Shown here: one piece after another, positions 23,271 to 33,808 of the stretch
Layout: each line of letters starts with the position of its first letter
Numbering within the stretch: position 1 is the stretch's first letter
Program-made: the position numbers and the translations under genes
The notes under the pieces: generated by a model
The model's input: only the letters and a program-made list of their open reading frames with translations
Databases searched by the model: none
What the model was told of the DNA's origin: nothing
Assembly (NCBI GenBank): GCA_965242725.1
Contig: CBDESZ010000030.1
Coordinates: 64,001-128,000 of the forward strand
Source: Alkalispirochaeta sp.
GTDB taxonomy: Bacteria > Spirochaetota > Spirochaetia > DSM-27196 > Alkalispirochaetaceae
DNA length: 64,000 nucleotides
Reading direction: 5' to 3'

Positions 23271-24527
23271 TCAGGAGACAATTGCCCCGTAGAACAGACC
23301 CGCCGCTGTGGACATGCTCACGACCAGGAAGATGTAGGTAGCCGTTTTCTTCATACCAAGTTCACTGCCGATCACCATGATTGAGGGCAGTGAAAGGGAG
23401 GGACCGGCCAGCAGCAGGGCCAGTGCGGGGCCGTCGTTCATACCCGCGCCGAGAAGGCCCTGCATGATGGGTACCTCCGTCAGCGTGGCAAAGTACATGA
23501 GAGCACCGGCGAGGGCTGCGATAAGATTGCTTCCGAGCGAGTTGGTTCCCACCAGATCGGCGATCCACTCTTCCGGGATGAGGGCCGCGTGACCCGGGCG
23601 CCCCAGAAGGAAGCCCGCCACAAGTACTCCGGCAAAAAGCAGCGGCAGGATCTGAACGGCAAAATCTCTGGTTGCCGAGACCCAGTCAGTAAGCTCACTC
23701 CTGCTGAACCATCGCAGGAGCGTATAGCCCAGGATCACGGTAAAGACTCCAGTGATTGGCCACTTCCATCGATAGATGACATCCCACCATGTGACGGAAC
23801 CGCCGGACGGCGCCCAGTTCACGAAGAGGAGTATCCCGACCATGGATGCCATGTAGAGCGCCATTTGCGGGAGAGTGCGGCCCCTGGTATCGTCAAAGGG
23901 CTGAAACATCGCGGCGTTCGTCGTACGGTCTTTGTCCTCCCGGAGGTAGACCATCTGCATGACAACTCCAATGACAAAGGCAAAAAGGATCGCTCCCACG
24001 GCTCGGGCGACTCCGAGCCGTACTCCCAGCACCTTGGCGGTGAGAATAATCGCGAGGATGTTAATCGCCGGACCAGAGTAGAGAAAGCTTACCGCCGGGC
24101 CAAGACCGGCACCTTTCCTGTAGATGCCTTTGAACAGCGGCAGGACGGTACAGGAACAGACCGCCAGGATCGTACCCGATACCGATGCAACTCCGTATGC
24201 CGTGAGTCTTGGCGCATCGGGTCCAAGGTAGCGAATGACCGCCTGCTGATTGAGGAAGATCGTAATCGCGCCGGCGATGAAAAATGCGGGAACGAGACAA
24301 AGCAGCACATGTTCCCGGGCATACTCCCCGAGCATGAGGAACGCCTCGTTTACCGCCGAGGAAACTCTTGGTGCCGACCAGGGGACAAAAAAGGCAACAA
24401 GAAAGACAAGAGCCATCGCCGTGAGGATTCGGTTCTTGTCCTCCCCCCAGAACGCATTGATTCGCCGAATGATAACCCGTCCGGAGGACCCACCGGCTTC
24501 ATCGGGCGCTGACGTCGTCGTGTTCAT
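23271..24527 (-). CDS. arsP: ArsP/DUF318-family permease
   Basis: HVLLCLVPAFFIAGAI, AVCSCTVLPLF, GPAIN, MYFATLTEVP, GPSLSLP; within the ars cluster. Confidence 0.85.
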   Translation of the reverse strand: MNTTTSAPDEAGGSSGRVIIRRINAFWGEDKNRILTAMALVFLVAFFVPWSAPRVSSAVNEAFLMLGEYAREHVLLCLVPAFFIAGAITIFLNQQAVIRYLGPDAPRLTAYGVASVSGTILAVCSCTVLPLFKGIYRKGAGLGPAVSFLYSGPAINILAIILTAKVLGVRLGVARAVGAILFAFVIGVVMQMVYLREDKDRTTNAAMFQPFDDTRGRTLPQMALYMASMVGILLFVNWAPSGGSVTWWDVIYRWKWPITGVFTVILGYTLLRWFSRSELTDWVSATRDFAVQILPLLFAGVLVAGFLLGRPGHAALIPEEWIADLVGTNSLGSNLIAALAGALMYFATLTEVPIMQGLLGAGMNDGPALALLLAGPSLSLPSIMVIGSELGMKKTATYIFLVVSMSTAAGLFYGAIVS

Positions 24528-24590
24528 CGTTCTTTCTCCCCCATATCATCGATCAGAGAAATCTCCTGGACCGGTACTGAAGGCTTCAGC

Positions 24591-24836
24591 CTATCCGGCG
24601 GTGTAGGCTCTCAGAGACTCGGCTATCTGTGCAGGTGAGTAGACTTTGCCGAACTTCTGCACCACGCCGTCAAAGGCGTAACCCGGTGTCCTCAAAACAC
24701 CCATCTCGAGAATCCGATCACTGTCAGTCACTTTTTCTATCGTCACATCGATACCCAGTTGTGTTGCAGCTTCGATCGCGTTCTCCTCGAGTTTTTTACA
24801 GTTTGGACACCCCCCACCCAGTATTTGTATGGTCAT
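24591..24836 (-). CDS. Small redox-active disulfide protein (thioredoxin-like)
   Basis: IQILGGGCPNC, GVLRTP; typical ArsP partner. Confidence 0.88.
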   Translation of the reverse strand: MTIQILGGGCPNCKKLEENAIEAATQLGIDVTIEKVTDSDRILEMGVLRTPGYAFDGVVQKFGKVYSPAQIAESLRAYTAG

Positions 24837-24933
24837 GGCGGACTCTCCTTTCTGAATTTATTGTTTATTTGTCTATATAACCAAGTTTACATCAACATCG
24901 TACACCCGTCAATTCGTTTTCCCGACATCAGAG

Positions 24934-24970
24934 TTGACATGGCGGAATATTTGCTTATATTTGCAAGTAT
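24934..24970 (+). promoter_or_regulatory. arsR promoter with overlapping ArsR-type inverted-repeat operator
   Basis: TTGACA-16 bp-TATATT. Imperfect IR ATATTTGC-N8-GCAAGTAT covers the -10 box and start codon. Confidence 0.7.
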
Positions 24971-25304
24971 GCAGCAAACAGCCAGATTCAAGGCCGAAGC
25001 GCGCTCGGAGATTCTGAAAGCCCTCGCTCACCCGACCCGCATTTACATCGTAGATCTCCTCGATCGGGAAGGCCCCCGCTGCGTCTGCGAGCTCGCCAAA
25101 GAGATCGGCGCGGACATGTCCACCGTTTCCCGGCATCTTTCGCTCCTGAGAAATGCGGGCATCCTCGAAGATGAAAAGAAGGGTACCACCGTCTACTACT
25201 CTCTTGCCTGCGACTGCATCTCGGAGTTCATGAAGGGACTCGAGAAAATCCTTCGTTCAAAGCATCAGCGGGAAAACAGGCGTTTCCAGGCGCTGGTCGA
25301 GTAG
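24969..25304 (+). CDS. arsR: ArsR/SmtB family transcriptional regulator
   Basis: LKALAHPTR, CVCEL, STVSRHL..LRNAG, YYSL.CDC. Confidence 0.92.
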   Translation: MQQTARFKAEARSEILKALAHPTRIYIVDLLDREGPRCVCELAKEIGADMSTVSRHLSLLRNAGILEDEKKGTTVYYSLACDCISEFMKGLEKILRSKHQRENRRFQALVE

Positions 25305-25426
25305 CGCAGGAATCCCCTAGGTCACAATATCAGCATGAGTGTTTCCGACACCTCCGGCTGATGACAACCCTTGTCCCTGAAGACGCAAGTCGGACATACC
25401 GCAATCATGAAGAATTCAGGAGGAGA

Positions 25427-25906
25427 ATGGTGAACAAGAAACCAAGAGTACTCGCAATTTGTATCCATAACAGCGCCAGAAGCCAGATGACCGAGGAGTT
25501 TATCAGACAGGCCGCAGGTGATCGGGTGGAAGTCATGAGCGCGGGGATCGAGCCGGGAAAAATCAACCCCGTCGTCGTCGAGCTTCTGAAAGAGGACGGA
25601 ATCAATATCGAGGGGAAGGGGACACAAAGTGTCTTTGAACTACACCAACGGGGAGAACGTTTTGACTACGTCATCGCCGTGTGCGACAAAGAAGCCGCCG
25701 ATCGTTGCCCTATATTTCCCGCCGAGAAAAAACGACTTCACTGGCCGTTTCCTGATCCATCGAAAGCAGAGGGGACCATGGAAGAGAAGCTCTCGTATGT
25801 GCGTCCCATCCGGGATCAAATACGGGACCAGGCACGCCGGTTTGTACAAGACACACTTTTTGCAGAACCGCAACCGCACGACACCACACAGGTGAACGAC
25901 CAATGA
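25427..25906 (+). CDS. arsC: Arsenate reductase (LMW-PTP fold)
   Basis: CIHNSARSQM, VIAVCD, CPIFP, HWPFPDPS, IRDQI. SD AGGAGG. Confidence 0.9.
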   Translation: MVNKKPRVLAICIHNSARSQMTEEFIRQAAGDRVEVMSAGIEPGKINPVVVELLKEDGINIEGKGTQSVFELHQRGERFDYVIAVCDKEAADRCPIFPAEKKRLHWPFPDPSKAEGTMEEKLSYVRPIRDQIRDQARRFVQDTLFAEPQPHDTTQVNDQ

Positions 25907-26985
25907 ATGAACAGCACAGCTCCAGGCAGATAGATGGTCTCGGTCTGTTCGGAAAATATCTATCGGTCTGGGTCGCCCTCTGTATCGTAGCAGGTGTCGC
26001 GGTCGGTCGGTTTATGCCGGCGGTGCCGAATTTTCTCAGCCGCTTTGAATACGCCCACGTCTCCATTCCGGTTGCACTACTGATCTGGGTGATGATCTAC
26101 CCGATGATGCTCAAGGTCGATTTTTCGAGTGTCCTTGGTGCATTGAAAGCACCGAAAGGGCTCACCATCACTACCGTCACCAATTGGCTGATCAAGCCCT
26201 TCACCATGTTCTTCTTCGCGTGGCTCTTTTTCACCGTCGTCTTCCGATCTATCATTCCGGAAAAACTTGCACGGGAGTATCTTGCCGGTGCAGTCCTTCT
26301 CGGTGCCGCTCCGTGCACGGCAATGGTCTTTGTATGGAGCCACCTGACCAGCGGGAATCCCGGTTACACGCTCGTGCAGGTCGCCGTAAATGATCTCATC
26401 CTGATCGTCGCCTTCGCTCCCATCGTCATGTTTCTCCTTGGTATCTCCGACGTTGTCATTCCTTACGACACACTTTTCCTTTCAGTGGTGATATTCATCG
26501 TCATTCCTTTGACCGCCGCCGCGCTGACGAGACGGTTTCTCATTCGCCGGCGGGGGACAGCCTACTTTGAACACGTCTTTCTTCCGAGATTTGACGGTAT
26601 CACCACCACAGGACTGCTGGCCACGCTTATCCTGCTGTTCTCATTTCAGGGTGAGACGATTCTCAATAATCCATTTCACATCGTGTTGATCGCGGTTCCG
26701 TTGATCATCCAGACATTTTTTATTTTCGGGCTTGCATACGGATGGGCAAGGTTGTGGCGTGTACCGCATGATATCGCCTCTCCCGCGGCGATGATCGGAG
26801 CGAGTAATTTTTTCGAACTTGCCGTTGCGGTGGCCGTTTCTCTCTTCGGACTCTCATCGGGTGCCGCCCTGGCAACGGTAGTCGGGGTTCTTGTGGAAGT
26901 TCCTGTCATGCTCGCGTTGGTGAGTATCGCCAATTCGACACGGGATCGCTTTCCGCGGTCTTATTCGTCGATCGATTCCGGATAG
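25903..26985 (+). CDS. acr3: ACR3-family arsenite efflux transporter
   Basis: YLSVWV, IWVMIYPMM, NWLIKPF, APCTAMVFVW, GASNFFELAVA, GVLVEVPVML. Confidence 0.95.
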   Translation: MNEQHSSRQIDGLGLFGKYLSVWVALCIVAGVAVGRFMPAVPNFLSRFEYAHVSIPVALLIWVMIYPMMLKVDFSSVLGALKAPKGLTITTVTNWLIKPFTMFFFAWLFFTVVFRSIIPEKLAREYLAGAVLLGAAPCTAMVFVWSHLTSGNPGYTLVQVAVNDLILIVAFAPIVMFLLGISDVVIPYDTLFLSVVIFIVIPLTAAALTRRFLIRRRGTAYFEHVFLPRFDGITTTGLLATLILLFSFQGETILNNPFHIVLIAVPLIIQTFFIFGLAYGWARLWRVPHDIASPAAMIGASNFFELAVAVAVSLFGLSSGAALATVVGVLVEVPVMLALVSIANSTRDRFPRSYSSIDSG

Positions 26986-28563: not shown

Positions 28564-29826
28564 ATGCCGTCGGATCAACAAAATGTAGATTACCCTGTCC
28601 AGGATGATACGATTTCGCTGCTTGATTTGGTTGCCGTACTGGTCCGACACAAATGGCTCATTGTCGGCACAACGTTTGCCGCGGCGATCGGTATTTTGAT
28701 ATTTTCGATCATTTCGCTGGTCCTGCCGTCCGATATTTCCCCCCTGCCGAACTACTTCAAGGCGACCGCAGAGGTCCTCATTACGGAGGAGAGCGGCACC
28801 AATCTGCAGTCGGTCCTCGGGAATTCCCAGCTTGCAAGCCTGGCGGGACTGTCCGGAGCGGGCGGCGGATCGAGTAACGGCGAGCTGGCCCTCTCCCTCC
28901 TCACCAGTCGCACGGTTCTGGATCAGATCGTCAACGAGTTCAACATCATTGAACGATACGAAATCGAAGAATCACCGCGGGCACGAAGCAGACAAGTGGT
29001 GCGGGAGATGATGGAGAGCAACCTTGAGCCGGAAACGGGAATTCTGTCGGTCTCCATTCAGCATATCGATCCCGCCTTTGCCCGGGATGTGACCAATCGC
29101 CTCGTTGAAATTCTCAATGGCCGTTTCCAGGAACTGGGTGTCGACCAGAACCGAAGTCGCGCAAATCTTCTGGAACGCAAGATATCTGAAGTGGATGAGG
29201 AAATCCTGCAGCTGGAGCAGCAAATCAAAGAGTTTCAGCGTCGGTACGGAGCGTTCAACGTCCAGAGTATGGTGGAAGAGCAGGTCGCCATGCGGGGTCG
29301 TATTCGAAGCGATCTCGTTCTCAAGGAGATTGAAATCAGCACCTACGAAGATTTTTCGACGATAAACGATCCTGTTCTTCAACGCCTCAGGACGGAGCGC
29401 GACAACCTGCGTCAGCTTCTACGGGAAATGGAAGAGGGTTTCTCCGAATTTTCCACAGGACTGCCGTCACAGCAGGAGCTGCCGGAACTGGCGGCGGAGT
29501 TTGCACGACTCCAGCGGGAAGCGCAGGTGCAGCAACAGATTTATACGACCCTTCGTCAGCAGTATGAACTGGCTCAACTGTCACTGGAGGGTGAAGAGCG
29601 AACGTTTCAGATTCTGGAGCTCGCGGAAGTCCCCGACCAAAAGGCGGGACCGAGCCGTGCGATGATTTCAATCATTACGACAATTACCGCGTTCTTTGTA
29701 AGTGTATTTCTCGCCTTTGTTCTGGAGTACTTCTCCAGGGTGAAGGAAGATCCGGAAGAAGGCAGGAAACTCAAAGAGATCGAACAGGGTCTCCGGATAT
29801 TCCACCGGAGAGCACAAGGGAGATAG
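28564..29826 (+). CDS. Wzz/GumC-type polysaccharide co-polymerase (no kinase domain)
   Basis: D.ISLLDL..VL, N-terminal TM, coiled coil, A.VP..K.GPSR plus C-terminal TM. Confidence 0.85.
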   Translation: MPSDQQNVDYPVQDDTISLLDLVAVLVRHKWLIVGTTFAAAIGILIFSIISLVLPSDISPLPNYFKATAEVLITEESGTNLQSVLGNSQLASLAGLSGAGGGSSNGELALSLLTSRTVLDQIVNEFNIIERYEIEESPRARSRQVVREMMESNLEPETGILSVSIQHIDPAFARDVTNRLVEILNGRFQELGVDQNRSRANLLERKISEVDEEILQLEQQIKEFQRRYGAFNVQSMVEEQVAMRGRIRSDLVLKEIEISTYEDFSTINDPVLQRLRTERDNLRQLLREMEEGFSEFSTGLPSQQELPELAAEFARLQREAQVQQQIYTTLRQQYELAQLSLEGEERTFQILELAEVPDQKAGPSRAMISIITTITAFFVSVFLAFVLEYFSRVKEDPEEGRKLKEIEQGLRIFHRRAQGR

Positions 29827-29843: not shown

Positions 29844-30221
29844 TCATGAAAAACTCGCCCAAAGGATTTTCAGGTTCTCGGAAATTGACAATACGGTTTC
29901 ATCCGCAGTGGGGAGTGCCAGTGTCTCAATAATCCCCATTGATTCTCCGGGCAGGACCGCTACCGATTCGACGATCCGCCGATAGAAGACCTGTTCCCCC
30001 GCGGACAATCGAAAGACAAAATCCACATGAGAAATCGTCTCACCGCCGACGTTGGTGATCGAAAAAACGACATCACAGAGCCCTTCGGCGTCGACACTCA
30101 GCGCTTCCGCCCTTACAACGCCTTCCGGGACCGGAGGCTCGTCCAGGGGACACCCGGACAGCATCAGAGCTGCAACGATACACATGCCGATGACCGCGAC
30201 TCCTACGATTCTGGTTTCCAT
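29844..30221 (-). CDS. Putative lipoprotein, Ig-like beta sandwich
   Basis: Lipobox MLSG-C, ITNVG..I, V.PGES. SD GGAGG; overlaps the upstream gene. Confidence 0.75.
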   Translation of the reverse strand: METRIVGVAVIGMCIVAALMLSGCPLDEPPVPEGVVRAEALSVDAEGLCDVVFSITNVGGETISHVDFVFRLSAGEQVFYRRIVESVAVLPGESMGIIETLALPTADETVLSISENLKILWASFS

Positions 30222-30925
30222 AGCCATCCTCCACGAACATTCAATTCCGATGGGCCTTCCATATGGTGCATCACGGTCGACGCGCCGACGTGAAATCGGT
30301 CCCATCCCCATCTCATGGAGATAACTGCGGCAAATGAAACCTGCGTAAATGTCGGCCCGTTGCGAATGAGCGGTACAATTTCGAATTGGATTGAGGTTAT
30401 GTCGTTTGTCACCAGCACCGAAGAAAGCGGCATTTGCAGGACCATCTCCTCGGGAGATTCCGTCGAAAATATCGCCACGACTCCGCATCCGTGAACCATC
30501 GGATCTCTGATGAACATCACATTTGCCGATCCGGTGACCGCCCTCCCCGTATCGAGGGAAGCGGCAATGCGGCTTTTTCGAAAAGCCGGACCGAAGGTAT
30601 ATCCCGTCTCAAACGAAACGACACCGTCGGCGGTATATCCAAGAACCAACCCGTCCGCAGTTGTACGATGGGCTCCTATCGGAACGCGCCCTTCCACGGA
30701 GAAATCGTACCGCTGGCGCACCTTCCCGCCGATTTCAATGTTAACGTCTCCTTCAAAGACGGACACGACACTGCGATAGTAACGTTCTGTCTGTGGCAGG
30801 ATAGATAGACCGCCGTTGAAAAAAAGTTCGATCCGGCGATGGGTTTCAACTGCGATGCGCTGGTGATCGGATTGTTCCTCGGAAAAGGTTGATATGCCAG
30901 GAACAATCACGAGCAGAATCAGCAT
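30203..30925 (-). CDS. Putative outer-membrane beta-barrel (FapF-like)
   Basis: Signal peptide, amphipathic beta strands, IRDPMV and TNDITS motifs, aromatic C-terminal strand VRGGWLW. Confidence 0.6.
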   Translation of the reverse strand: MLILLVIVPGISTFSEEQSDHQRIAVETHRRIELFFNGGLSILPQTERYYRSVVSVFEGDVNIEIGGKVRQRYDFSVEGRVPIGAHRTTADGLVLGYTADGVVSFETGYTFGPAFRKSRIAASLDTGRAVTGSANVMFIRDPMVHGCGVVAIFSTESPEEMVLQMPLSSVLVTNDITSIQFEIVPLIRNGPTFTQVSFAAVISMRWGWDRFHVGASTVMHHMEGPSELNVRGGWLWKPES

Positions 30926-30929
30926 CGTC

Positions 30930-31475
30930 CTACCTGCCGTCACGGACCGCCTCCAGCCGCTTCCATCGAGAGCGTGCAGCATCCATTGCCGCCGCAAATG
31001 CCTCCGTGCGGACCTGCCCGTCAATAACAATGGCAGCACCCGACGCGCGACGTGCCCACCAGATCGGTGTCACGATAATCATGCCCCGTGCGGGATCTCC
31101 CAACAGCATTGTCTCCTTGTCTTCGTCAACCGCTCCGAAAGCAAGCGCGTAGTGTCCGTAGGGACGGTCAAAGTGCACGATGACTGGACCAAACCTCGTC
31201 GTACCCTCATGAACCAGCTCCCAGGTAAGCCAATATGCCCTGTTTGACAATCCGATCTGCCGGAGAATGTCGGTTACCTCTCGAACGGAGAGGCTGTAAT
31301 CCCCGCTCACGTCATCCCGGGAGAGCTCGAGATCCGTCACCCAGAACGACTCCACAGCCGACTCGATAACGGCGTGAGCGCAATCGGTGTCGTACTGTTG
31401 TTCATTCATAAAGGTGAAAAGGAGCGCCTCCATGGAGACAACGCCTGCCAACGCAGTCGAAAGAAGTATATTCAT
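30930..31475 (-). CDS. Stand-alone C39-family cysteine peptidase
   Basis: QQYDTDCA (Q-x-C), SVREV, GHYALA (His), LLGDPARG (Asp), N-terminal hydrophobic signal, no ABC domain. Confidence 0.82.
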   Translation of the reverse strand: MNILLSTALAGVVSMEALLFTFMNEQQYDTDCAHAVIESAVESFWVTDLELSRDDVSGDYSLSVREVTDILRQIGLSNRAYWLTWELVHEGTTRFGPVIVHFDRPYGHYALAFGAVDEDKETMLLGDPARGMIIVTPIWWARRASGAAIVIDGQVRTEAFAAAMDAARSRWKRLEAVRDGR

Positions 31476-32254
31476 CGTGGTTTTGGTAAATAGTCACCTT
31501 CCCAGGGCCCAAGGCTTTCTCTCAGCTGGGGAAAGCGCCGATATACCGGCGGGAGCGCATAGAGCGGTGATATATTGATCTCGGATACGCCCGCCAGAGC
31601 CTCAAGCTCTTTGGGAATCGGTCGTATTTCCAGTCTGTAGTTATAGCGAAGCGACACGGTGCGAAGGGTCGGGGGAATGTGGTTTATCAGGGGCAGTTCC
31701 TCTTGGAAGTAGAAGGTGATCGCAAACTCCGCCAGAGACGGAAAACTCTTGAGTGAGATATACGAAAGGTTGCCCGACCATAGACTGTCCTGGATGGTGA
31801 GTCGCTTCAGGTTCTTTGAACCGAAGTAAAAAAGGCGCAAATCTTCAAACCACATCCCCGTGATAGTCAGCTCCTCCAGATTTGGAAAACTTCTGAGGAT
31901 GGTCCAGTCATACGGTTCAGTGAGATTCCAGAGATGCAGAGAACGGACATTGACCGTCGTTTCGGATCTTCGAATCGAAGAAATCCGTGACCGCGTCAAT
32001 ATCCCGGCGTCATAGATATTCCACACCGAAATCGTCGCCTCCCGGGGATTGGCCGCGGGAAGGATGGGAATGATCCCCTCCTCGCCGATGGAGGTGGCGA
32101 CATACAGGACTGGGTTGTCGGCGGCGTCGGGATCCACGGCGTAAACGGACAACGAACAGGCGATGAAGAGCGTAACGTACAGTCGAACCGGACGCAGCCG
32201 GGCGGAACCTGAACCGGTTTTCATTGAATCGGAATCGGCTGCCGCGGACTTCAT
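31472..32254 (-). CDS. Secreted leucine-rich-repeat-like protein (paralog 2)
   Basis: FPNLEELTI, NLKRLTI, FPSLAEF, PPTLRTVSL repeats; signal-like segment; ATGA overlaps on both sides. Confidence 0.75.
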   Translation of the reverse strand: MKSAAADSDSMKTGSGSARLRPVRLYVTLFIACSLSVYAVDPDAADNPVLYVATSIGEEGIIPILPAANPREATISVWNIYDAGILTRSRISSIRRSETTVNVRSLHLWNLTEPYDWTILRSFPNLEELTITGMWFEDLRLFYFGSKNLKRLTIQDSLWSGNLSYISLKSFPSLAEFAITFYFQEELPLINHIPPTLRTVSLRYNYRLEIRPIPKELEALAGVSEINISPLYALPPVYRRFPQLRESLGPWEGDYLPKPR

Positions 32255-32988
32255 CGATCCCTCCGTCGCGAACCGTCCCAGGGGCCTGCACCGTCGGCCA
32301 ACTGCGGAAACTGAAGCCGTACCTCATCCGAGGCCTGAAGCGGCCATACGTTAATCGTTTTGAGTCCGGATAGTGCGATAAGTCGCGGCGTTGCCCGCTC
32401 GAAGACAATGGTCCTGTTCATATGGAATGTCACTGTTTCCAGAGAGGGCGGGATGTCGACCAGGAGCGGGATATCCTCAGCTCCACTGCACATGTACCCC
32501 AATTCCACCAGCGCAGGAAAGCGTTTGAGAGAAATGACGGGTCGGCGGTCGCAGCCGTAGGTTTCGCTGATGACAAGAATCTCGACTTTTGGCGCTCCGT
32601 GGTCAAAAAGACGATCTCGTTCAAACCGCATCCCAGTAATTGTAAGACTTTTAAGGTTTGGAAAACTGTTCAATATGGACCATTCCATGGGTTCTATGAC
32701 ATGCCATAGATGTAAGGACTGGATTCTCTCGGTAAATGTCGTTCGCCTGACGGCAGAAATGCGGGCTCTCCCGGTAATCCCGTTTTCCTGCATCGCCCAG
32801 AGGGCAATTGAAGCGTGATTCGCTTCAATTTCACGAATCGGAATTATGGCTGTCTCTCCGGTGGCCGCCGTGACATAGAGCGACCGTTCTTCCGGTACTA
32901 AGGGTAATATAGCGACTACGGTGTAAATGAATATCGCAATACTCAGATAGCTTCGCCGAGGCCGCCGCACATGCGGCGGCCTCCTCAT
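32251..32988 (-). CDS. Secreted leucine-rich-repeat-like protein (paralog 1)
   Basis: FPNLKSLTI, FPALVEL, PPSLETVTF, LSGLKTINV; full-length similarity to 31472..32254. Start uncertain (32988, 33009 or GTG 32970). Confidence 0.75.
   Translation of the reverse strand: MRRPPHVRRPRRSYLSIAIFIYTVVAILPLVPEERSLYVTAATGETAIIPIREIEANHASIALWAMQENGITGRARISAVRRTTFTERIQSLHLWHVIEPMEWSILNSFPNLKSLTITGMRFERDRLFDHGAPKVEILVISETYGCDRRPVISLKRFPALVELGYMCSGAEDIPLLVDIPPSLETVTFHMNRTIVFERATPRLIALSGLKTINVWPLQASDEVRLQFPQLADGAGPWDGSRRRDR
32958..32983. other. Perfect 12-bp inverted repeat just downstream of the precursor gene
   Basis: GAGGCCGCCGCA-CA-TGCGGCGGCCTC. Confidence 0.85.
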
Positions 32989-32999
32989 GAAGGATTTAA

Positions 33000-33611
33000 T
33001 TACTCCCATGACAGTATTGTATTGTGATCGCGCCGGGGAAGAGGCACAAAAGCCTGCTGTGTTGTATTCGGCGGCATTCGTTCGGGTTCCCACTGTTGCA
33101 TTTCCTGCAAATGGTCGTAACTACCGTTGATATACCGATCATACAACGCCCCTCCGGCGCGATTGTCGTATACCTGGAGGTGAGTTTTTCCCTCGTCATT
33201 ACCGGTAAAGATATACCCCGCAGTGCCTGGAGGCGGTGTGGGAGATGCATTGGAGCGATGTTGCTGGTAGATCTCGTTGACCGTTACCCGGTCATAATCG
33301 AGAAACCCTCCCGTCGGTGTGGATGTGTCGAGCCCCATACCTTCCGCCCGGTTCCGGGCGATGAAGTCGCAGTGGACGGCACTGCTGTTTGATGTCTCCC
33401 GTTTCCAGGAAATCCGGCGTAACCGTCTGCGAAGACTTGCAAACCGGGGAAAGAGGGCCCCCTCAGTTTCATCCATCTCCGACACACTCATTGTCGGAGC
33501 GTCAAAGCCAATAAATCCGTCGACGGGAGATTCCGTCGATTCCCATGCGCCAACTGCCGCGAGTCCGCCGATGACGAACCCGACAATCAAGAGAGGAACG
33601 TACTTGTGCAT
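33000..33611 (-). CDS. Secreted precursor: Sec signal + double-glycine-like leader + putative Cys/His hydrolase domain
   Basis: SD GGAGG; signal MHKYVPLLIVGFVIGGLAAVGA; FDAPTMSVSEMDETEGA; HCD...PPPG..YIF...THLQVY. Confidence 0.75.
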   Translation of the reverse strand: MHKYVPLLIVGFVIGGLAAVGAWESTESPVDGFIGFDAPTMSVSEMDETEGALFPRFASLRRRLRRISWKRETSNSSAVHCDFIARNRAEGMGLDTSTPTGGFLDYDRVTVNEIYQQHRSNASPTPPPGTAGYIFTGNDEGKTHLQVYDNRAGGALYDRYINGSYDHLQEMQQWEPERMPPNTTQQAFVPLPRRDHNTILSWE

Positions 33612-33808
33612 GGCAACCTCCTATGCACGTAAGCCGAGATCCGCATTGCTGCGTCCTTCTGCTCCTCCCTACCGGTAAATATGTCTTCCCGCTTTATTTA
33701 ATTCGTCTTTTCTATTCGCTTTTATTGACCTGCTGATGCATGAAGGGCGGAGGCCACCAATGGTACGCCTCCGCCTTACGCTTGTTCCTGCGTTAGTTCC
33801 GGCACATC

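Follow-up and report, generated by a model that had tools for sequence, protein, structure and literature searches.

The gene at 33000-33611 on the minus strand of the window, by which we mean the whole 64,000-nucleotide stretch of Alkalispirochaeta DNA analysed here, very probably encodes a toxin accompanied by its own immunity proteins, and the locus that it heads is likely a variant of Fap-type export with a toxin/immunity cargo. The 203-residue product, hereafter the cargo, is a precursor in which a Sec-type signal and an acidic leader of the double-glycine (GG) type precede a Cys/His domain of predicted papain-like fold, the likely toxin. The cargo gene is the first of a six-gene cassette that also encodes two LRR proteins, a standalone C39 peptidase, a predicted outer-membrane β-barrel and a small predicted lipoprotein, in frames that overlap or abut. 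Neither the FapF-like barrel nor the LRR immunity candidates had been noted in the first-pass annotation of this DNA.

Eight homologues at 43-56% identity indicate that the cargo gene is real. At E ≤ 0.001 there are 25 cargo representatives, of which 24 are homologues; P0032 was dropped as a chance match to a repeat protein. A ribosome-binding site, AGGAGG (33617-33622, minus strand), lies 5 nt ahead of the ATG at 33611, and a promoter and terminator scan returned counts at chance level. The gene is single-copy in its own genome (G000; 4.3 Mb, 92% complete). Residues 1-22 (33546-33611, minus strand, as are all cargo coordinates that follow) form a predicted Sec signal of the length proposed earlier, with an n/h/c pattern and an Ala at about position 22 that is kept in close homologues. 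They are followed by an acidic pro-region, residues 23-52 (33456-33545), the last 12 residues of which, 41-52 (33456-33491), make up the core GG-type leader with a predicted cut after A52. The predicted mature protein, residues 53-203 (33003-33455), contains Cys81 (codon 33369-33371) and His144 (codon 33180-33182). The acidic-to-basic switch that had been described for the cargo is borne out by a net charge of −8 over residues 23-52 and +7 over residues 53-75. Not every homologue has the basic patch: over the 27 residues that precede the Cys, 4 of the 17 scored have a charge of −1 to +1. In close homologues the switch goes up to +12. The clade with Sec signal and leader also carries an aromatic-rich C-terminal tail (W-S-W, W-Y-R or Y-Y-R type; 33003-33030 in the window) that is absent from the RHS and GG forms of the domain and is possibly a second export or folding feature.

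Canonical GG leaders have hydrophobic residues at −12, −7 and −4, an acidic residue at −8, Gly at −2 and Gly or Ala at −1. In the cargo, M41, E45, M46, T49, G51 and A52 fall in this register, and the segment M41-A52 shares its 12-residue register with the VNGG leaders found before the same domain elsewhere. We compared 27 leaders that follow a Sec signal, 21 of them from rows of the cargo-domain family (some near-duplicates) and six from unrelated cargoes. Position −8 is E or Q in 26, −7 is M or L in 23 and −4 is T, V or I in 24, while the search pattern itself set −12 and −2. Position −1 is variable (A in 9, S in 7, N in 4, R in 3, then D, E and others); it is Ala in the Alkalispirochaeta cargo, and a true GG ends the leader of one Sec+leader protein of genome G385, but R, N, D and E at this position are unlike canonical GG/GA sites. 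The double-glycine pattern noted in the first-pass annotation is thus upheld for its register, but because position −1 varies, its 'G(G/A)' ending is not a rule of the family.

A pattern combining signal and leader matched one of 45,709 ATG starts in the genome of origin, namely the cargo gene itself; the pattern was built on the cargo family, and this count therefore shows just that chance matches are rare. A leader HMM likewise gave one match in this genome and none in each of two cassette-less relatives. The search of this genome for other ORFs with signal and leader that had been suggested gave none, either by the pattern over those ATG starts or by the HMM. In the earlier view a double-glycine leader normally replaces a Sec signal; the stacking of the two is less anomalous than stated there, because Fap pairs a Sec-exported C39 with processed Sec cargo, according to the available text of PMC5557850. 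That the neighbouring C39 reads the leader, also proposed earlier, agrees at the level of sequence with its being the sole C39 found in the genome, with its intact Q26, C32, H108 and D127 and with its presence in 6/6 Sec+leader loci. We hold with good confidence that the cassette C39 reads the cargo leader, and we lean slightly towards a cut exactly after A52.

Residues C81, D82, N87, G132, F135 and H144 are invariant in 43/43 aligned homologues, an alignment that left out five His-less, membrane-anchored relatives handled apart. In a model of residues 54-203 (pLDDT 87.9), C81 opens the first helix and the second core strand carries H144. Foldseek with this model gave a best E of 0.07 (probability 0.91). 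The top VIA rows were CHAP, NlpC/P60 and Tse1 peptidoglycan hydrolases (Z 7.5, 7.2 and 7.0), the best having an rmsd of 3.8 over 108 aligned residues, with 8-14% identity to neighbours; a clear VIA match was taken as Z ≥ 8, which no row reached for the domain, and unrelated proteins often score Z 7-8. Lower down, at Z of about 5, are C39 domains, staphopains and deamidase toxins, and ESM Atlas was uninformative for the cargo domain (best 0.76). In each of the three fold searches, most of the highest-ranked rows are peptidoglycan enzymes of the CHAP, NlpC or Tse1 type. The papain-like fold of CHAP/NlpC type that had been proposed is therefore favoured by the predicted structure, at modest scores (E 0.07, Z ≤ 7.5); the modelling and Foldseek comparison suggested along with it put CHAP/NlpC on top, but with a match below the clear level.

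The order of NlpC/P60 motifs read earlier from the sequence is partly retained, as the quoted motifs are present but the match to 'PGDxxF' is loose, with the Asp missing and G132 and F135 as the invariant residues. The NlpC/CHAP 'GD' motif is absent: the cargo reads G129-T-A-G132-Y-I-F135, and that column holds no Asp in any of the 43 homologues. The same set has no invariant third catalytic residue (N, T or S at position 162), and 0/43 members match the NlpC/P60 (PF00877) or CHAP (PF05257) profiles at E ≤ 1. Comparison of the cargo domain with Pfam, NCBIfam and PDB sequences matched no family. The domain probably works like a CHAP/NlpC enzyme without being filed as a member.

The domain also occurs in 10/400 sampled genomes of the phylum and 13/400 sampled genomes of the class besides the genome of origin, the two samples overlapping. 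In two full-length RHS proteins it stands right at the C-terminal end (residues 1722-1837 of 1839 in one, 1788-1906 of 1907 in the other), and it lies behind an RHS core in five genome loci (TIGR03696 above cutoff) and in four database proteins (three above cutoff). In L018:1501-2373 (G250) it is fused to a T4 gp19/CIS-type tail tube (PF06841, E 6e-35), and an LRR gene follows. Signal-less VNGG leaders precede it in six loci of four genomes, with an ABC-C39 exporter right downstream in G420 and G452. The G420 array contains the domain three times and combines one leader with several C-termini, each with its own partner. At L042 (G420:C1:2456000-2475999), eight genes for GG-leader proteins stand in an array; their C-termini are of four kinds, of which at least three bear a Cys, each comes with a partner gene of its own, and an ABC-C39 exporter split by an IS and a HlyD-like gene lie downstream. 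The N-terminus of L019 runs off its contig and this locus, first taken as RHS, was left unclassified; L064 has no recognisable leader.

In a tree of the domain alone, 20 Sec+leader rows lie on one side of a branch (99/94) and the RHS and GG forms are intermixed, so the link between domain and cassette likely arose once and has been stable since. The Sec+leader forms are single-copy, with no swapping of C-terminal domains in the six cassettes. P0031, in which the domain stands behind a plain signal peptide with no leader, forms a long branch beside the Sec+leader branch. The His-less relatives (L023, L024, L025, L029 and L031) have membrane segments at the N-terminus and lack an LRR neighbour; three genomes of one genus carry near-identical copies, and the group is likely an inactive, domesticated offshoot.

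Two LRR genes follow the cargo gene on the minus strand. LRR protein A (32251-32988; longest ORF starting at 33093) has an N-terminal hydrophobic signal and is likely a periplasmic immunity protein, and LRR protein B (31472-32254), a paralogue 40% identical to A, is likely a second immunity copy. An 11-bp perfect G+C hairpin (32958-32983, minus strand; z −4.7) lies 3 nt after the LRR-A start codon; its exact sequence is found in no other locus compared, and it could tune immunity translation or mRNA stability. A related LRR gene lies less than 4 kb downstream in 20/21 loci with intact Cys/His (18 genomes; the one intact locus without it is in G142), in 6/7 intact loci outside the profile-building set and in 0/5 His-less loci (~1.5 kb downstream covered), counts that are not independent events because the genomes are related. 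Cassette LRRs and LRRs from other contexts align beyond the repeats (97.3% probability, E 2e-11), and a profile of non-cassette LRRs picks LRR-B as the best of 16,130 ORFs of the genome of origin (E 1.6e-6). The LRR partners carry N-terminal signals and therefore point to a periplasmic target. A predicted complex of the domain with LRR-B scored 0.01, a value that says nothing for or against the pairing. The toxin role that had been proposed for the cargo fits, as far as sequences can tell, with the RHS, GG-leader and tail-tube fusions and with the co-travelling LRR partner. By the logic set out in the available part of PMC3482391, we judge it highly probable that domain and LRR protein behave as a polymorphic toxin/immunity pair.

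The order cargo-LRR-C39-barrel is found in 6/6 Sec+leader loci with context (the window, L001-L004 and L059). L059 belongs to another family (G542), and the other five loci fed the C39 or barrel profiles. In L059, outside those profiles, the C39 is matched at E 2e-39 and the barrel weakly, at E 3.8e-6 and below threshold in a second search. The cargo is found in 4/60 relatives and full-strength C39 matches in 4/98 genomes of the order, and these are the same four genomes; 3/16 other genomes of the genus have the cassette cargo. Beyond the cassette, the 92%-complete genome of origin yielded neither a further C39 nor a further barrel of this kind. The C39 match in G024 was rejected as a cassette, being a fragment with stops and no cargo match, and a single metagenome locus matching the C39 alignment was rejected because it lies on the opposite strand of a membrane-protein gene.

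The standalone C39 peptidase (30930-31475, minus strand) is FapD/FilB-like, and its Q26, C32, H108 and D127 are invariant in 6/6 aligned sequences. It scores 21.5 bits with PF03412, just below the cutoff of 22, and no NCBIfam model matched it. Three related C39s pass PF03412, with FapD as their best NCBIfam match (E 7e-14 to 7e-17) and FilB (NF050078) among their top three (E 1e-11 to 1e-13), both far below cutoff. The N-terminus is a hydrophobic stretch of ~10 residues with no basic residue in 4/4 sequences scored, on account of which a periplasmic location is weakly supported; the C39 of G122 has a long signal-like stretch.

The predicted outer-membrane β-barrel, FapF/COG4313-like, is encoded at 30203-30925 (minus strand; start inferred, longest ORF from 31039). 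Its model, built with eight sequences, is all-β (pLDDT 74), Foldseek ranks 1-10 are all FapF (E 1.3e-7, TM 0.58), and VIA gives a tie among KdgM (Z 17.4), COG4313 (16.6) and FapF (16.4). The barrel begins ~35 residues into the model, after a short low-confidence N-terminus and with no FapF coiled-coil part. Comparison with Pfam, NCBIfam and PDB sequences matched no family, and a homologue search returned, among the matches listed, the barrel itself and one relative. In ESM Atlas the barrel falls near unnamed clusters at 0.94-0.95, and the nearest named ones include PF13557 in 33% of members, which we take as a lead only. The small predicted lipoprotein (29844-30227, minus strand; lipobox LSG|C, Cys codon ending at 30152) is present in 5/6 cassettes and is accessory. 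None of the cassette genes encodes a FapA, FapB, FapC or FapE amyloid subunit. A wzz-like gene adjoins the cassette in four same-genus loci (the window, at 28564-29826, and L001-L003) in differing orientations, and a wza-like gene is also present in L001 and L003; wzz and wza are directly adjacent in two cassette-less relatives. A functional wzz/wza link was not adopted, wzz being absent near the L004 and L059 cassettes. Judged by eye, window positions 23271-26985 hold an arsenic-resistance-like group (permease, thioredoxin-like, ArsR-like, ArsC-like and ACR3-like).

Other spirochaetes with a C39+barrel pair, G420 and G122, have Sec+leader cargo bearing different C-termini. In G420, L037:9501-9869 encodes a Sec+leader glycine-zipper, bacteriocin-like protein divergent from the C39/barrel pair, and a gene for a 60-aa two-helix membrane protein follows; a CAAX label for a gene near the G420 cargo was unconfirmed by Pfam. 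G122 has 17 Sec+leader matches, whose N-termini are nearly identical while the C-termini differ, and 3′ fragments of the barrel gene recur among them. This G122 family, spread over the whole genome (L040, L073, L079, L084 and L088), is interleaved with membrane proteins, CAAX proteases and HExxH proteins. The CAAX matches beside cargo in G122 and G385 are real and constitute weak evidence of immunity, both outcomes on immunity having been reported for CAAX proteins in the available text of PMC9298176. No Sec+leader cargo was found in G189, whose C39 gene is interrupted by a stop and is close to the end of a contig.

The cassette resembles the Pseudomonas Fap system, as presented in the available text of PMC5557850 and PMC6173800, in that an intact standalone C39 stands beside a FapF-like barrel and the Sec cargo has a predicted removable N-terminal part. 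In those sources secretion depends on the Cys of FapD, a periplasmic C39, FapE is N-terminally processed, fapD/fapF pairs occur in five further phyla, and the substrate and recognition site of FapD itself are left open; the accessible part of a preprint (10.64898/2026.10.01.755530) adds no FapD site. Unlike Fap, the cassette has no FapA/B/C amyloid subunits, and a small, folded enzyme that comes with immunity-like partners is its cargo. Its barrel (~240 aa) differs from FapF in having no long periplasmic N-terminal coiled-coil part, and its C39 differs from FapD in scoring far below the FapD model cutoff and in its atypical signal. In Acinetobacter Fil, FilB resembles the related C39s, whereas the cassette has no pilus subunit.

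As in the polymorphic toxin systems with papain-like C-terminal domains (Tox-NLPC/P60, Tox-PL1-3, Imm-LRR) described in the available portion of PMC3482391, the domain is a C-terminal one shuffled over RHS, contractile-tube and other N-termini and followed by an immunity-like gene. The entries of that portion for Tox-NLPC/P60 and Tox-PL1-3 list neither a spirochaete range nor LRR immunity, its export-pathway entries do not include a C39/FapF route, and the cargo domain matches no Pfam or NCBIfam family. Different C-termini on one N-terminus, a polymorphic trait, are not seen in the six cassettes but do occur in the Sec+leader cargo of G122 and G420. The cassette shares its 12-residue register with GG-leader/PCAT export, and the same Cys/His domain uses the ABC-C39 route in G420 and G452, but in contrast to PCAT systems the cassette leader follows a Sec signal, its −1 position is variable and its C39 has no ABC transporter. 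For the GG-leader proteins and PCATs (TepA) of Treponema denticola, no killing was detected according to the available text of PMC4947327 and PMC11879956, where these proteins appear as different and larger cargo than that of the cassette. With CHAP, NlpC/P60 and Tse1 (Tae1), as covered in the available text of PMC10318531, the cargo domain shares a predicted helix-Cys, strand, strand-His topology, and these are its top structural neighbours, but unlike them it has no GD motif, invariant third residue or profile match. We found no published account of toxin cargo for FapD/FapF-type systems, or of the cargo domain, in a mostly open literature that excluded the supplements of PMC3482391 and PMC6173800.

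The explanation that we favour is that the cargo is an antibacterial toxin that uses Sec, C39 leader cleavage and barrel export, attacks peptidoglycan and is countered at home by the LRR proteins, a complete mechanism to which we give a somewhat better than even chance. The cargo would enter the periplasm by Sec and lose its signal there, the FapD-type C39 would recognise and cut the acidic double-glycine-type leader, probably after A52, and, by analogy with FapF (available text of PMC5557850), the FapF-like barrel would pass the cargo out of the cell. The released papain-fold Cys/His domain would then fold and attack the peptidoglycan of rivals, and the two adjacent LRR proteins would protect the producer. 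Entry into the periplasm of a Gram-negative victim is left unaccounted for by the features of the locus. Of the individual parts, export of the cargo through the barrel seems to us probable, and peptidoglycan as the substrate of the predicted enzyme reasonably so.

Several of the same observations would suit a cassette-exported toxin with LRR immunity whose target is not peptidoglycan, the cargo then being a protease, deamidase or amidase of papain fold with some other envelope component as its substrate, and the leader a chaperone tag or one cut at another bond. The fold scores are low, papain-fold protease and deamidase toxins appear at Z 4.7-5.0, the GD motif and third residue are missing, the leader −1 position is variable, and the substrate of FapD itself is left open in the available text of PMC6173800. 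We nevertheless consider this reading unlikely, as the top fold rows are mostly CHAP/NlpC/Tse1 peptidoglycan enzymes, the C39 catalytic residues are invariant in 6/6 sequences and FapD needs its Cys (available text of PMC5557850). That the acidic segment is instead a charge-masking propeptide for the basic mature N-terminus, removed by general proteases while C39 and barrel serve other cargo, would account for the strong switch in the cargo (−8, then +7) and for the charge of up to +12 in close homologues. It is very improbable given that homologues lacking the basic patch keep the leader register, as do unrelated cargoes next to other C39/barrel pairs, and that the genome of origin yielded no second leader-bearing protein.

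The cargo could also be a domesticated former toxin, a periplasmic or surface zymogen that the C39 activates and the LRR proteins restrain and that remodels the producer's own wall or envelope. Such a role is kept open because the cassette link likely arose once and is stable, and it would be in line with a single clade, a single copy and the same cargo across two families, with the clade-specific N- and C-terminal extensions and with the wzz- and/or wza-like polysaccharide-export genes that adjoin the cassette in four same-genus loci. We think it quite unlikely, since presence is patchy (3/16 other genomes of the genus), unlike that of a housekeeping gene, the immunity-like gene is duplicated in the Alkalispirochaeta window, L004 and L059 have no wzz link, and a periplasmic enzyme would need no outer-membrane pore.

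One domain family occurs in two settings, behind a canonical GG leader next to an ABC-C39 exporter and behind Sec signal and leader next to a standalone C39 and barrel, and this natural swap supports the role of the tag. The cargo offers a small soluble reporter for FapD-type recognition with a simple read-out, toxicity and rescue. Since the cargo adjoins immunity candidates, a C39 and a predicted pore of the amyloid-export type, such machinery likely also delivers toxins. A broader proposal, for and against which we see the chances as evenly balanced, is that toxins are secreted in two steps by FapD/FapF-type cassettes in general. In spirochaetes, wall hydrolases and bacteriocin-like proteins would be marked by a Sec signal together with a GG-type tag and so directed to a C39 in the periplasm and a small barrel, which would do for this toxin domain what RHS cages, contractile tubes and ABC-C39 exporters do for it elsewhere; the domain would form, with the LRR protein as its inhibitor, an unclassified toxin/immunity family; and the tag would be the sought substrate of FapD. 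If our preferred reading, an exported wall-attacking toxin with LRR immunity, is right, Fap-type export would be extended from amyloid to antibacterial toxins, and a toxin/LRR-immunity family spread over many spirochaete genomes would be added.
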